The position numbers and the translations under genes were made by a program. A stretch of 64,000 nucleotides of DNA, taken from assembly GCF_053078305.1 (NCBI RefSeq), contig NZ_CP166879.1. The stretch is one strand, 5' to 3'. Positions 46,552-54,600 of the stretch are shown in pieces; the first letter of the stretch is position 1, and every line of letters starts with the position of its first letter. Under the pieces are notes generated by a model that saw only the letters and a program-made list of their open reading frames with translations, was not told the origin of the DNA and ran no database searches.

Positions 46552-47448
46552 TCAGTAACAGCAGTAGCGAATAAAATAAAAAAATACCGGAGCGGTGAAA
46601 ATTAATGAGTCAATCCTGTCAAGGAGTCCGCCATGTCCTGGTAATAGTTTTCCGCTATCTTTAACACCCACATCTCGTTTGACGGCTGACATCACTACAT
46701 CGCCGCAAAAACCACTAATACCAATTAACAAACCCGCTAATAATGCCTGTAATGTATTTAGCGGTGTCAGCAACGGTCCAATAATCAGTGACGCAATCAT
46801 GGTGGTGATTACGCCCCCCACCAGACCTTCCAGCGTTTTTCCCGGGCTGACTTTGGGGACCACTTTTCTTCTGCCGCAGGATTTCCCCCATAAATACTGT
46901 GCAATATCGTTTGACTCTGTTAACGCCAAAAGAAATAACACCAGTAACGCCCCGCCCTGGGTATTTGTGGTTGGCAACATTAATAACCAGGCGGCATGAC
47001 TCAAGGCGAAAACGGTCATTATCCAGCCCCAAAAAATGGCGCTCACGGTATGCAGAAAACCGGAGGTATCACCTACTAAAACTCGCCAGGTGGTTAATAT
47101 CAGAAACCCAGCCAAAGGTATAAATAACAGAAACAGCTCAAAGCAATTAAAACCGATAAGCAAATAGTTAAGAGGAATAACCCAATATAACCAACGCGGA
47201 AAATGTACGGATATAAGCGTACAATATTCTTTCAATGCCAGAAAACTTATCAGCGCAAAAAACGTCAACGTCATCCAGCGTGGACCTGAAATCACCAGTG
47301 AAAAACAAATGACGATACCCCACCAGGTACGAATACGTAATGTAACTTCATCCTCTTTTCTCTCCGGTAACCGCCATACCCGAAAACGGTTTATCAGCGT
47401 TGCTAAAATTAACAACGCGAAAAGTGTTGCCAGAGATTTTTCCAGCAT
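46552..47448 (-). CDS. ynbB: CDP-diglyceride synthetase-like (CdsA-family) membrane protein
   Basis: 298-aa polytopic ORF; C-terminal CdsA signature SAVKRDVGVKDSGKLLPGHGGLLDRIDS. Confidence 0.85.
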   Translation of the reverse strand: MLEKSLATLFALLILATLINRFRVWRLPERKEDEVTLRIRTWWGIVICFSLVISGPRWMTLTFFALISFLALKEYCTLISVHFPRWLYWVIPLNYLLIGFNCFELFLLFIPLAGFLILTTWRVLVGDTSGFLHTVSAIFWGWIMTVFALSHAAWLLMLPTTNTQGGALLVLFLLALTESNDIAQYLWGKSCGRRKVVPKVSPGKTLEGLVGGVITTMIASLIIGPLLTPLNTLQALLAGLLIGISGFCGDVVMSAVKRDVGVKDSGKLLPGHGGLLDRIDSLIFTAPVFFYFIRYCCY

Positions 47449-48053
47449 TATCTTTCAGCACTCATCAGGAGCACACTCCGACAACGATTAATCGCAGTCC
47501 AGATAAGCAGAATTGAAGCAATGCCCCATAAAAGATTATTCCATTGCATCCACTGTGGATAAATGGCAACGGCCAGCCCCCACAACCCAAATATTAACGC
47601 ACGATCGCTTTTGCCGAATGGACCGGCATAACTGCGAATACCGTTAATCGTCTGCGCGAGTAAACCGCAAAACTCAGTCAATATGGTGAAAAATAACATG
47701 AGTATTACGAGTGATGCGTTACTTTCTGGTAAAAATAAAAACGGTAAATAGAGCGCAATATCGGAAATAACATCGCCAGTTTCATTCAAAATCGCCCCCA
47801 GACGTGTTTGCAGATTGCACTCACGCGCCAACATGCCATCCAGCGCATTGAGTGCCATACGGATAAAAAGCACGATGGGCAATAGCAAAAAGAGGATGGG
47901 TTGTGCGACCAACATCAACAGCAATCCGGTAATAAGAGAAAGCGCCAGTGCAGCAAGAGTGATGTGATTCGCTGTAACATGGTGCTTATAAAGCCAAAAC
48001 ATCGTCGGCCTTAACAGCGACTGAAAGAGCGGTTTTATCTGGTAGAGCGTCAT
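47448..48053 (-). CDS. ynbA: CDP-alcohol phosphatidyltransferase-family membrane protein
   Basis: ORF 47448..48059 trimmed to MTLYQIKPLF (201 aa); motif region ALDGMLAR...G...D...D; stop overlaps ynbB start. Confidence 0.85.
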   Translation of the reverse strand: MTLYQIKPLFQSLLRPTMFWLYKHHVTANHITLAALALSLITGLLLMLVAQPILFLLLPIVLFIRMALNALDGMLARECNLQTRLGAILNETGDVISDIALYLPFLFLPESNASLVILMLFFTILTEFCGLLAQTINGIRSYAGPFGKSDRALIFGLWGLAVAIYPQWMQWNNLLWGIASILLIWTAINRCRSVLLMSAER

Positions 48054-48222
48054 TATCAATCCTTGATAATTCGGTTTGCGCTATGGTGCATCAATTCCCC
48101 TGACGGAGATATCGCAACACGACGCTTCATTAAAAATTCAGAATATATCAAGGTATTGGGGACTCACTGTCAGGAATGATTATCCCAATAAATCAAGTGG
48201 TTAAAAATTATTACGCTGTTAT

Positions 48223-50529
48223 TCAATACAACTCATCAAGTTTTCTCATCGCTTGTTCCCGTATTGCGCGCGTCTTACCGTTAAGCGCCAGCTGGCGAAC
48301 TAAATCCAGTTCAGGGTTAACAAGCTCTAACGCCAGCAAAGGATCACGTTTCAGCCTCGCCTTTAATACATCAACTGGAAAACGGGGATTATTCATCGCC
48401 ACAATCCACCACTCGGGATCAATTTCTGCCGCCAGTACTGCAGGCGGTGTGTGGCGGTTGTTAAGTGCGCCGAACTTGAAAAATGTGAGATTGCTTTTCG
48501 CCAGTGTACTCCACCATATACGATCCGGTTGTTTTGCCAGTACATCCAGTTGTGCTAACGCATCGGGGTCTAGTGCATAATAAACACGTAACGCTTCGTT
48601 AACCTGCGCACGGGAACTGTTTTCCTGCCTCAGAAAAAACTTCGCCCAAATATCATTGCGTGGCGTGTTTTGCTGTAATTCCTTGAGAACAACAGCGGGT
48701 AAATTATCCCAACTAATTAATGCTCTCTCTAAAAAGTCCCAGTCGTCCGAACGTATCAGAGAGGTGGCATTTAATAGCATCTGGTCATCAACTTCACCGT
48801 AGCTGATAAGCTCAGACAAAATCATATCAGCGCTGGTTTCATATGCATCTGAATCTGCTTTGGGATTATTTTTCCGATGCGATAAAGCACGTTGCCAAAT
48901 TTTTTGTTTCATCGACGTGCTCAGATACTGATTTTTCGCCAGATTACTCCACCCCTCAGGATCGTTGAAACGTGTCAATAACCGTTGTAAAGCAGCGTCA
49001 GAGTGAATTATCTGCATATCCCGACAGCAAAAGTAGGCAGGGGATTTTTTCTCCATCCTTTTAACAAAATTAAACTGTAAGTTATCTGGCAACGCTAAAA
49101 ATAACGCACCTATTAGATCATCGTCATTCTCGAATTTTTGGTATAAATATACTGCTATTTTGTCACTCTCTTGTGGCGTCATCCGCAACAATTGACCATG
49201 GTGTTTCATCTCTGCCAGCTTTAACGCTAAGCTTGTGACAACATCGTTTGATGAATCGTTCGCCAACTGCATTGCCTGATTGTAGGTGAGTTGTCCTCCA
49301 GCACCGACCTGACGAATAGAGGAATCATCACTGCGGATATAGCCATCAATAATGGATTCGGGCAATAACCACGCATCTTTATAAAGCTCCTGAATGATCA
49401 TATCCCAATCTCTTTTCGCCAGAGTCATGACGATATCCAGAGGGAGATTTTCACGTAGCGCAAGATTCAACGGACCGACACCATCAGGTAGATGACTCAT
49501 TCGCGTCATTATTTCGACAGAGAGCGGTTCACGGTCGAGCAACCCCAGAACAACAGGCTGGTAACCCAATTGCTGATCGGTCAACTCCAGAATCTCATTG
49601 TCAGGCATATATCTCGCCATACTTGCAATCGTTTGTCCATCATTGCTATTAATAAGTTGTTTGCGTAGGTTAGCTGAAATTCCTTTAAGCCTTGGGAGAG
49701 TTCGCATTATGGCAAGATCAAATGTCGCAATATCTCGTCCTTCAAATGCAGCAACGTTGCCTTCATCCAGCATTTGCAATTCCTGCACTAACTCAGGAGA
49801 AGGCTTAGGGCGAAACAGCGCTTCTTTTTTCATCTGATTACAGACATTCCCTGCCATGCGAATATTGCTTCGCTTAAAAATTTCTTTCAGAGCATCTTCA
49901 TCATTTATTAGACCCCAATAATATGCATCAGGATTTATTATCTTCAACGCTTTTTTGACATTTTCAGTGTCATTTTTATCACTCGCACGGACCATGAATT
50001 CACTATTTGTCGAAGACGCAACAACAGGTGCAATTATGTCATTGATAAATATCCCACGCGCATTAATACTCCCCTTAATCGTAGACGGATTATCGTAATA
50101 TGAGTCGATAAATACCAGTCCACTTGCATTTATCGAACCGGTAATTAACAGTGGTGAATCCGTAACTATATTCGTTGCCGTCACGTTACCGAGAATAACC
50201 CATGGATTAGAAAGAGAGAAAGTGGAAATATTACCTTTGACTGTCAAATTGCCAAGAACAATCAATTTTTGATTACTCTCTATATTACCTTCTACCACTA
50301 AATCGCCACGATGCACTTTCCAGTCCGATGCAGATAAACCGAAGGGGACAAGATTCACGCTACTGTTGATAGCTTGTTCAACTTGTTGTTTATCTTCAGC
50401 GGTAGCCGCAGAAAAAAATGGTTCAATATCAACTGCATTTGCAACACATCGAAGTTCCGCCTGTACTGGAAGACTCAGCATAAACAGGGGGAGTAAACCT
50501 ATCCAGCTGCAAATCCTGGGCTTAAACAT
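48223..50529 (-). CDS. ydbD: Large secreted protein of unknown function YdbD
   Basis: ORF 48223..50535 trimmed to MFKPRICSWIGLLPLFMLSLPVQA (signal peptide); 768 aa. Confidence 0.85.
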   Translation of the reverse strand: MFKPRICSWIGLLPLFMLSLPVQAELRCVANAVDIEPFFSAATAEDKQQVEQAINSSVNLVPFGLSASDWKVHRGDLVVEGNIESNQKLIVLGNLTVKGNISTFSLSNPWVILGNVTATNIVTDSPLLITGSINASGLVFIDSYYDNPSTIKGSINARGIFINDIIAPVVASSTNSEFMVRASDKNDTENVKKALKIINPDAYYWGLINDEDALKEIFKRSNIRMAGNVCNQMKKEALFRPKPSPELVQELQMLDEGNVAAFEGRDIATFDLAIMRTLPRLKGISANLRKQLINSNDGQTIASMARYMPDNEILELTDQQLGYQPVVLGLLDREPLSVEIMTRMSHLPDGVGPLNLALRENLPLDIVMTLAKRDWDMIIQELYKDAWLLPESIIDGYIRSDDSSIRQVGAGGQLTYNQAMQLANDSSNDVVTSLALKLAEMKHHGQLLRMTPQESDKIAVYLYQKFENDDDLIGALFLALPDNLQFNFVKRMEKKSPAYFCCRDMQIIHSDAALQRLLTRFNDPEGWSNLAKNQYLSTSMKQKIWQRALSHRKNNPKADSDAYETSADMILSELISYGEVDDQMLLNATSLIRSDDWDFLERALISWDNLPAVVLKELQQNTPRNDIWAKFFLRQENSSRAQVNEALRVYYALDPDALAQLDVLAKQPDRIWWSTLAKSNLTFFKFGALNNRHTPPAVLAAEIDPEWWIVAMNNPRFPVDVLKARLKRDPLLALELVNPELDLVRQLALNGKTRAIREQAMRKLDELY

Positions 50530-50545
50530 ATGCACTCCATGCCAT

Positions 50546-50584
50546 TAAAAAAGAAACAAAAGGGAAATGCATCTTTCCCTTTTG
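50546..50584 (-). terminator. Intrinsic terminator of pdxI (ydbC)
   Basis: Minus strand: aaagggaaa-gatgca-tttcccttt hairpin then gtttctttttt. Confidence 0.55.
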
Positions 50585-50592
50585 TATATTCG

Positions 50593-51453
50593 TTATTCTC
50601 GCGAAATACCATCCAACGTAGACAACACTTCCTCAGAAAGATGCAATTTTTCAGCAGCCATATTCTCCCGTAAATGCGCAACAGAAGACGTCCCTGGGAT
50701 CAGCAAAATATTCGGTGAACGTTGTAACAGCCACGCCAGCGCCACCTGCATTGGTGTTGCACCCAGGCTCGCAGCAACATCGGAAAGCGTGGAAGATTGC
50801 AGCGGCGTAAAGCCCCCGAGCGGAAAGAACGGCACGTAGGCAATGCCGTCACGAGCCAAAGCTTCAATCATTGCGTCATCAGCACGATGAGCAATGTTGT
50901 ATTCGTTCTGCACACAGACGATTTCGGCAATCTTGCGCGCCTCTGCAACCTGCGTCGGTGTGACGTTGCTCAGGCCAATATGTTTTACCAGGCCTTGTTG
51001 TTGCATCTCTGCCAGCACGGTCAGGCTGGCTTCAATCGATCCTTCCGCCGGGCCATGACCATCCCCCATCATCACGCGCAGGTTAACCACATCCAGTATG
51101 TCCAGGCCGAGATTACGTAGATTATCGTGTACCGCTTTTTGCAGCTCTGCCGGAGAAAATGCGGGCAACCAGGATGCGTCCTCTCCACGCCGCGCACCAA
51201 TTTTAGTGACAATTGTCAGATCGTCAGAGTAAGGATAAAGCGCTTCGCGGATAATCTGATTGGTGACGTGCGGACCATAAAAGTCGCTGGTATCAATGTG
51301 ATTGACGCCCAATGCCAGCGCCTCACGCAGCACGGTTATAGCGACGTGGCGATCTCTTGGGGGGCCAAAAACCCCAGGACCTGCCAGTTGCATCGCGCCA
51401 TAACCAAGACGGTTAACGGATTTTGTACCGAGAGTAAATGTATTGCTGCTCAT
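50593..51453 (-). CDS. pdxI: Aldo-keto reductase (pyridoxine 4-dehydrogenase PdxI / YdbC)
   Basis: 286-aa ORF with AKR-family sequence (GYGAMQLAG..., IDTSDFYG). Confidence 0.88.
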   Translation of the reverse strand: MSSNTFTLGTKSVNRLGYGAMQLAGPGVFGPPRDRHVAITVLREALALGVNHIDTSDFYGPHVTNQIIREALYPYSDDLTIVTKIGARRGEDASWLPAFSPAELQKAVHDNLRNLGLDILDVVNLRVMMGDGHGPAEGSIEASLTVLAEMQQQGLVKHIGLSNVTPTQVAEARKIAEIVCVQNEYNIAHRADDAMIEALARDGIAYVPFFPLGGFTPLQSSTLSDVAASLGATPMQVALAWLLQRSPNILLIPGTSSVAHLRENMAAEKLHLSEEVLSTLDGISRE

Positions 51454-51619
51454 CGCACCCTGCCCTGTAATAAAACGGATTAAGAAAAATCAGTATAGAA
51501 ACGAAAAGAGATAAATAATGCGAAGGCGTAAACAAGATTTCTGGATGAGTAGCACTATTGTCCTGAAAGACACCAAAACATTAGACAGCAAAAGATAAGT
51601 CAAGCGTCGCATCCGGCAA

Positions 51620-51650
51620 TAAAAAACCGCAACCTGTATCAGCGTTGCGG
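51620..51650 (-). terminator. Intrinsic terminator of ydbA
   Basis: Minus strand: ccgcaac-gctgatacag-gttgcgg hairpin followed by ttttttatt; about 20 bp after ydbA stop; a REP-like half-site gcgtcgcatccggca lies adjacent. Confidence 0.6.
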
Positions 51651-51672
51651 TTTGTGTATCACATGCTAAAAA

Positions 51673-54600
51673 TTAGAACGTTTTCTTAAAGTTCAGCATC
51701 ACGCCTTTGTCGCTGATGCCGTCCTCTTTCCAGTGATACGCATCCAGATTCAGCGAACTTTCTTTGCTACTGTACTTCACGCCGACGCTCGCCAGGCTGT
51801 TGATACCGCCGCCCTTCTGACCGTCATCGACGTTAAAGTGCTGGCTGCCTGCCCCTGCAAGGCTTGCCGTGCGCTGGCTCTTGCTGTAGCTCAGGTTCGG
51901 CCCGCCTTCCAGCGTCGCATTCGCGCTCCAGCCGCCTTTCCCTGCGTAGTCCAGTTTCAGCCCGACGATGCTGTCCACCGCCGTTTCGCTGCCGCTGTTC
52001 ATGCTCAGGTTAAAGTCTCCGGCATTGCGCTCCTGATAGCCGCCTTCCAGCGTGTGACGCAGTTTCACTCCGGCGTACGGGGTGATTTTCAGCCCTTCGC
52101 GCGGTTCAAAGGTTTTTGCCCCTTCGCTGCGGAACTCCAGGTACTGCTGTTTCACATCCGTGTCTGCCGTTTTGCTGACGTCGCCGTAAGCCACCGAGCG
52201 GCTGCTGTCGAGGTTATGCACGTCATAGCGCAGGGCGTTGTTCCAGTTCATCCCGTTGTCGAAGAACATCTGGTGCTTCAGGCCGAAGAACTGGCTGTAA
52301 CCACCGGTTACGCCGTTGTCGCCCGCTTTCTGCGCACCGTCGCCATCCAGACGGGCGATACCGTACTCCAGACTCAGGCTCTGGCTTTCGCTCAGGTCAA
52401 CGGTTTTACGCAACGCCAGCATGTCGTACTCGGTGTTATTTCCGAGTTCAGCACGCGGGTCGCCTTTCGCCACCACGTTAAACGCCAGACCGTTGCCCAT
52501 CTTCGGCGCGGCGTCCGCCAGCATGCTGAAGCGGTTGCTCAGCACGCGCGCCTCGCGGAATACCGTGGTTGCCTGGCTGCCGCTCACCTGCTTCAGGGCG
52601 CTGTTCAGTTCGGCAGTAGTGCCGACGTTCAGGCTGGTATACAGCTCGTTGTTGGTGTAACCCGCATCCAGTGCCTTCGCCACATCGTTCACCGAAGCAT
52701 CGGTCGCCACATCGGTGTAGGCGTTTTTGCTCATGGTGACGTCAACGTTGCCGCTGGCATCGGTGCTGCCTTTGGCGGTCCACACCACAGACGTTGAGGT
52801 GATGGCATCGGCGTCGGTCAGGTTGCTGCCTTCCACCACGTTGTCGAAACTGACCGTGGTGTCTGCCGTACCGGCGGCGAAACCGGTGTTGATCCCGACA
52901 CCGTTCATGCTGGCGTTGTTGACCTTGAGCTTACCGGCGCTGCCGTCAACGTTGGTACCGACCACATAACCGTTGAGGTTGTTGCTACCGCTGCCAGTCG
53001 CATCTCCCCCTGTTGTTACGCCACCAGAACTGGTGTTCGGCACTTCCGGCAACGTGTAGTCGGTGTAATGCACTTCGGTATTATTACCGTTGTTGCCGTT
53101 CACCCCTTCCACGTTCACGCTGTCGCCCTGCTTAATCAACCCGGAACCGGTCACGCCATCGGCAATCACCACGGTACCGTTGTTAACGATATGGCCTTGT
53201 GTTCCCAACACACTGAATGCAAAGGAATCGTTAGCATAGATATTAATCGTGCCGTTGTTCTCGATCACCGCGTCTGCGGTAGCGTTGGCATCCAGTTGCA
53301 TACCAATTAACCCGGTATCGGTGGTACCTTCGGTGCCGAGATTGATAACGCCGTTGTTAACCAGTTGTGCGTTTTTATCACCTTCCATCGCCACGGCATT
53401 GTTGCCGCTGATGTTCATCACGCCATCGTTGAGGGCAACATAGTTGTTGTGGGTGAATTTAACTGCGCTGGCGTTGTCTTTATCGAAGTTAATCACCCCG
53501 CCATCCTGGTTCCACAGGAAGGCATCGCTTTCTGTCGCACCAGCGGTACTTACCGCCACAGTGACTTTCGCATCCACCACGCCCTTGTTAATAAACTGGC
53601 TGGCGCCGTCGTCATAGTGAATAGCGCCCGCGCCAAGTGCGGCATCCAGCGTCATTTCACCGGTGTTATATAACGTGGCGTTAGCATTGCTTCCCTGGAA
53701 GCGAATGGCGTTTTTACTGTTATCAAGGATGAGCTTGCCGCTGTTGTTGAACGTTGATTGGTCGTCAATATCCAGCGTCCCGGCATTGTTATTTTCATCC
53801 TGATAACCCATTTTCCAGGTCCCCGCGTTATTCACCACCGCAGAGTTATAGAGAATGGCACCTTTACGCGCCTCGCCGCCTGCAAGGTTATTGAATACCG
53901 CATCGCCCTGAGCGTTAACGCGCGCCGACGCAATACCGCTGTTATTCACCGTACCATCGTGAAGTTGTAAAGTTGACAGGGAACCGGTGTTATTAATTAC
54001 CGCGTTGCTGTTTTTCTCAATTTTTACGACGTCATTAAGCGTTCCGTTGTTATTGAAGGTTCCTCCTTCCAGAGTCACCGTGTTCAATACACCTTCATTG
54101 GTTAACGCACCGCCTTCATTCACGACGATGGCTGAGCTAATGGTTCCGCTCGACTCGTTAACCAGCGCACCATTTTCGAGTATCCTGATCGTTCCATTTT
54201 TAACAGCACCCGCACTGGTGACATCCCCGTTGATAATCGCACCTGACGATAATAATACGGTCTCACCCGCAGAACTTAATACATCGCCATCATCATATAA
54301 ATCGGCAATATAATTATCCGTTGGATTATATTCATCGGCCCCCTGGCAAACGCCAAAGGTACAAATTGTGCCATAGTTGATAATAAGCCCAGTGCCATCG
54401 TTATAGAATGCCTGACCATTTTCCGCGTTAATGTTGATTACGCCTGTCTGGTCATTAATGGCGGTGCCTTCGTGATAAACCGCCATGCCGACGAGTTTAT
54501 TCACACCGAGAGAATCGTTGTAATTTTCATTTTTCTCCAGGTTGATGGTTCCCTGGTTAATGACCGTGTTGGTATTACCATACGCCGCCATCCCCGCACC

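Follow-up and report, generated by a model that had tools for sequence, protein, structure and literature searches.

Exported proteins built from repeats are known to serve as adaptors at the bacterial envelope. NlpI, ExoR and Legionella EnhC are exported, non-catalytic periplasmic solenoids that dock onto envelope enzymes or sensors, and curved repeat surfaces in general are usually where a partner protein or an extended polymer is bound. The beta-helix fold, in turn, is typical of adhesins and glycan binders; it also forms the core of the known bactofilins, cytoplasmic and membrane-associated proteins that polymerise into filaments, independently of nucleotides, through the exposed ends of their helices. 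The leucine-rich repeat variant (LRV) protein of Azotobacter vinelandii, 1LRV, carries an N-terminal Fe-S domain. YdbD, compared here with all of these, is the product of one of the remaining E. coli K-12 genes that have no assigned function.

The window (64,000 nucleotides of contig NZ_CP166879.1, RefSeq assembly GCF_053078305.1) is E. coli chromosome, and within it the ydbD region matches E. coli chromosomes at 100% identity. By the list of open reading frames and its translation, the ydbD coding sequence occupies positions 48223 to 50529 on the minus strand as 768 codons and a stop. The 768-residue frame of the initial annotation fills this interval as described; its placement on the minus strand had been missed, and the plus-strand translation of the same interval is stop-rich and was discarded. 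Complete identity to annotated E. coli ydbD and a low dN/dS against the E. albertii orthologue (0.163) agree with the call. The ATG lies at 50529-50527, with a GGAG ribosome-binding site, read directly in the sequence, 5 nt upstream (50535 to 50538, minus strand); a GTG two codons 5' of the ATG overlaps that site and is an unlikely start codon. The gene is E. coli K-12 ydbD (b1407; Pfam DUF2773, PF10971), shows no difference from it, and is already catalogued; it is 98-100% identical in DNA across E. coli, and RefSeq names its product "DUF2773 domain-containing bactofilin." The order pdxI, ydbD, ynbA in one direction, as first reported, matches annotated E. coli, with all three genes on the minus strand.

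The N-terminus has the canonical features of a predicted Sec leader, as the initial annotation had proposed in calling the protein secreted. Residues 1-24 (MFKPRICSWIGLLPLFMLSLPVQA|E; 50458 to 50529, minus strand) start with MFKPRI, which carries K3 and R5; a hydrophobic core of 14 residues (CSWIGLLPLFMLSL) follows, and then PVQA before the glutamate, which puts V at -3 and A at -1. A positive n-region, an h-region and a small-x-small motif (V-Q-A|E) are in place, and charge, hydrophobic core and the -3/-1 rule together predict the signal peptidase I site. The E. albertii leader is built alike, its substitutions being conservative (PAQS|E; A-Q-S|E), and an N-terminal hydrophobic leader is found in about 25 of 37 distant relatives; two further relatives that seemed leaderless gain one from an upstream in-frame ATG once their mis-called starts are corrected. 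The segment is disordered in the AlphaFold2 model. A lipoprotein was considered and ruled out, as there is no lipobox before Cys28. From these features we infer that YdbD is probably exported and cleaved.

Beyond the leader, AlphaFold2 models (pLDDT 86.6 and pTM 0.75 for the whole protein; pLDDT 82.4 for the N-domain modelled separately) predict two distinct repeat structures, the coordinates of which all refer to the minus strand. An N-terminal cap at residues 25-64, made of a short strand and a helix at 44-53 (50338 to 50457), would precede a right-handed beta-helix of some 6-7 turns at residues 65-185 (49975 to 50337). A predicted helical linker follows at residues 186-270 (49720 to 49974), modelled with low confidence at residues 207-225; it bears the family-conserved P200 and F239-R240 ('GxPxFR'), a motif that also terminates the stand-alone Streptomyces module. 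The remainder of the protein, residues 271-768 (48226 to 49719), is modelled as an LRV/HEAT-like alpha-solenoid of paired short helices, in which pairs of 7-9-residue helices recur with a period of about 26 residues at 338-423 and again at 612-735. Fold searches match this part to HEAT/ARM scaffolds only. The alpha-rich body with Leu/Ala repeats of the earlier description can be kept in part: the repeated segments would be real helical repeats (leucine makes up 12.6% and alanine 8.6% of YdbD), while residues 65-185, predicted to be beta-helix, had been missed. Cysteines occur only at residues 7, 28, 230, 501 and 502.

The Pfam domain DUF2773 (PF10971) covers residues 688-768, the final solenoid helices (48226 to 48468, minus strand), matching the full model (1-81) with 154.2 bits and E 1e-45, above the gathering score of 25 bits. 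The domain is merely the last 81 residues of the solenoid and carries no functional meaning. Structure prediction together with profile and fold searches has yielded an architecture, composed of a predicted beta-helix, an LRV/HEAT-like solenoid and DUF2773, and no known function, so that the original view of a protein with no assignable function still stands.

The same is true of the claim that YdbD lacks a recognisable catalytic motif. Searches of Pfam, NCBIfam, PADLOC and PDB sequences, and fold searches as well, turned up no such motif, no enzyme family and no catalytic fold; the sole NCBIfam match was a non-significant one to MinC, and PADLOC returned nothing. These results bear on older database descriptions, in which YdbD is a methylglyoxal-resistance or detoxification protein that would protect directly against the electrophile. 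The transposon screen by Kim et al., as described in citing papers, points that way, as do the naming of one protein cluster 'protein involved in detoxification of methylglyoxal' and the description of ydbD as 'induced by methylglyoxal' (PMC2731931). Against it, Pfam, NCBIfam and fold searches reveal no glyoxalase, aldo-keto reductase, DJ-1/PfpI or other catalytic signature, the protein is expressed at less than 1 ppm, and roughly one E. coli genome in four lacks the gene. Methylglyoxal, moreover, is made and detoxified in the cytoplasm, whereas YdbD is predicted to be periplasmic.

The screen itself allows another explanation, for yjjQ was also a hit, to judge from its citation in PMC4145685. 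This gene is located upstream of bglJ; directly 3' of ydbD, in turn, is the ynbA promoter, which BglJ-RcsB activates. Insertions in ydbD and in yjjQ could thus both act through this promoter and mis-expression of ynbABCD, and the published phenotype may be positional rather than direct. We consider a direct role in methylglyoxal resistance quite improbable.

The RefSeq product name suggests something different: that YdbD is a bactofilin, its beta-helix polymerising end to end into a cytoskeletal filament, unusual in its periplasmic location, that displays the solenoid. The model does contain a bactofilin-type core, a compact right-handed triangular beta-helix of about six turns, and Pfam gives weak matches to the family (E 0.017 with the entire sequence as query, E 0.0012 with just the N-domain). 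These matches to PF04519 (Bactofilin/DUF583) score 15.8 and 19.5 bits, respectively, against a gathering cut-off of 27.9. Of the 34 N-domain family members, just 2 show a sub-threshold Bactofilin match, fewer than show one to MinC_C (5) or pAdhesive_15 (4), and the N-domain family profile retrieves no bactofilin and nothing significant from PDB sequences, its top match being MinC at E 0.4. In the model, the beta-helix is flanked by structure at both ends, the structured N-cap (residues 30-64) preceding it; on the other side, helices begin at residue 188 and lead into a solenoid of about 500 residues. Unlike the cytoplasmic bactofilins, the family also carries predicted Sec signal peptides. A filament of this kind is very unlikely, and the "bactofilin" label reflects the predicted fold only.

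A word-indexed homologue search found Escherichia only, and distant relatives were reached by exhaustive HMMER search: about 40 full-length proteins of 735-820 aa, mostly metagenomic, with 17-31% identity. A 14-sequence profile search of genome contigs gave six loci only, comprising one full-length relative (Tahibacter soli) and five Streptomyces/Kitasatospora loci with the N-domain only. In Streptomyces, the N-module stands alone without a signal peptide and hence is not intrinsically periplasmic. Among 40 family members, Pfam recognises LRV_2 in 15, LRV in 12 and HEAT in 12; E. coli YdbD alone gives no LRV or HEAT match at E up to 1. At the level of the family profile, the solenoid core at about residues 328-433 (49231 to 49548, minus strand) is homologous to LRV repeats (PF01816 / PF25591), the profile matching 1LRV with E 7.5e-13. 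Each LRV repeat comprises about 24 residues in two short helices, and tandem copies wind into a right-handed superhelix.

Apart from the start Met, the invariant columns of the family are three turn glycines, D271 and N533 only. Across the wider family, 107 positions reach 70% conservation or more, and the E. coli protein is changed at 47 of them. Among those lost are the beta-helix motifs YDDY and SWG and, in the LRV repeats, most of the 'VR' signatures; YdbD may therefore differ in action from its relatives. As a long shot, the family could be an uncharacterised exported class that joins a beta-helix the size of a bactofilin's to an LRV solenoid and that self-assembles or builds a defined periplasmic structure. 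If that were true, the bactofilin cytoskeleton would have a counterpart outside the cytoplasm, or the envelope a new kind of scaffold whose specific partner is a polymer or an enzyme.

The position of the gene had prompted the suggestion of a functional link to either neighbour, such that YdbD would work with pdxI (pyridoxine 4-dehydrogenase) or with the ynbABCD lipid-synthesis genes. The common orientation and short gaps (63 nt between pdxI and ydbD, 169 nt between ydbD and ynbA) are consistent with this, as is the persistence of the pdxI-ydbD adjacency in E. albertii; one Tn-seq study flagged both YdbD and YnbB as weak in expression but relevant to fitness. However, a terminator scan, the sequence and RNA folding place an intrinsic-terminator-like hairpin (12-bp stem, 6-nt loop) with a T-run at 50546 to 50585 on the minus strand, after the pdxI stop and ahead of the ydbD ribosome-binding site. 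This hairpin is part of an 81-nt stretch, 50520-50600, which as a whole folds with -18.6 kcal/mol (z -2.3), and a related hairpin exists in E. albertii; Rfam, searched over 47000-52000, gave a chance-level match on the hairpin only (patAB leader, E 0.43, 25.9 bits against 92). We regard the hairpin as a putative terminator separating pdxI from ydbD.

On the other side, the intergenic region from the ydbD stop to the annotated ynbA ATG (48053) spans 169 nt (48054 to 48222, minus strand). The terminator scan located no terminator-like site in this gap, which would favour joint transcription with ynbA, but ynbA has a promoter of its own there. This promoter is activated by BglJ-RcsB, with the transcription start mapped by 5'-RACE and the BglJ-RcsB site mapped by mutagenesis and a lacZ fusion to the ydbD-ynbA intergenic fragment (PMC3950696).

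Comparative evidence further separates the three units. Four layouts are found in Escherichia: pdxI-ydbD-ynbABCD, pdxI-ynbABCD, pdxI alone, and pdxI-ydbD without ynbABCD. E. albertii keeps ydbD next to pdxI and is missing ynbABCD; ST95 has ynbABCD without ydbD, a deletion having left only the first 30 nt of the gene; and ST131 has pdxI without either. Six distant homologues lie in six unrelated neighbourhoods, none of which (0/6) places an aldo-keto reductase or CDP-alcohol transferase gene beside the homologue. PdxI, moreover, is a cytoplasmic enzyme, whereas YdbD is predicted to be exported. The proposed link to pdxI or ynbA finds no support here and is extremely unlikely; ydbD is a stand-alone gene outside the pdxI and ynbABCD units.

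A gene so irregularly distributed might also be a decaying remnant, that is, a horizontally acquired, silenced accessory gene that is functionless in E. coli and is being lost. It is present in 3990 of 5426 complete E. coli genomes and missing from 1436, ST131 and the 30-nt remnant of ST95 being examples. At 43% GC it falls below the window as a whole (about 50%), and it sits within an AT-rich tract; IS-truncated and in-frame-shortened alleles exist. The alterations at family-conserved positions, given above, fit the same picture. Expression is below 1 ppm of protein (PMC5053530), and it rises 3.9-fold on sigma-E overproduction (PMC2731931). Upstream of ydbD, no sigma-E promoter was found and a single weak sigma-70-like site lies within the 3' end of pdxI, while a generic promoter scan gave no more sites than in shuffled sequence; the induction by sigma-E may accordingly be indirect, and the terminator-like hairpin directly 5' of the gene, with no convincing promoter found, again agrees with decay.

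Selection argues otherwise. Comparison of the E. coli and E. albertii genes gives a whole-length dN/dS of 0.163 (dS 0.70), with every domain below 0.32, and ydbD is under purifying selection. An unbroken full-length frame is kept in 3833 complete E. coli genomes, the cleavage-site rules of the predicted signal peptide are kept across species, and even the 711-aa allele stays in frame and drops whole beta-helix turns. Decay is rather unlikely in view of both sets of observations.

We favour the reading that YdbD is exported to the cell envelope (periplasm) and serves there in binding or as a scaffold, without enzymatic activity, although we give it only about an even chance of being right. Cleavage of the Sec signal peptide would follow Ala24 and leave a mature protein of about 744 residues, which would remain in the periplasm. 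There, the short, capped right-handed beta-helix (residues 65-185) could form a 'head,' and the LRV/HEAT-like solenoid (271-768) could offer a curved repeat surface. YdbD would most likely act by binding and not by catalysis, a role suggested by the usual behaviour of such folds. In E. coli, the gene is a stand-alone, AT-rich accessory gene, near-silent in laboratory culture.

Several further observations touch on this reading. The sigma-E-linked rise in expression can be counted as an envelope connection of ydbD (PMC2731931). A level below 1 ppm is little for a structural scaffold (PMC5053530), and the losses at conserved positions, together with the signal-less N-module of Streptomyces, speak against this reading.

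What is gained is a cleaner description of ydbD: a protein predicted to be exported, non-catalytic, probably built from a beta-helix and an LRV-type solenoid, and independent of pdxI and ynbABCD. Two database labels appear weak, 'bactofilin' lying below the family threshold and 'methylglyoxal detoxification' stemming from one transposon screen. Should the family prove to have a defined periplasmic partner, it would provide envelope biology with a new type of adaptor.

Bactofilins (PF04519; BacA 2N3D, Thermus bactofilin 6RIA) have free helix ends flanked by short disordered tails, whereas the ends of the YdbD helix are predicted to be capped and joined to the solenoid. Relative to beta-helical adhesin and glycan-binding domains (Tapirin, autotransporter passengers, TpsA secretion domains), the predicted helix of YdbD is far shorter, at about 6-7 turns, and comes without an autotransporter barrel or TPS signal; identity is only 8-14%. 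With 1LRV it would share paired short helices, with a period of about 26 residues in the model, but YdbD is about three times longer, is predicted to be exported, has a predicted beta-helix head and is without a cysteine cluster. NlpI, ExoR and EnhC are built from TPR/Sel1 repeats instead of LRV/HEAT-like ones and have no sequence relationship to YdbD; as periplasmic solenoid adaptors, they may nonetheless provide its nearest working analogy.

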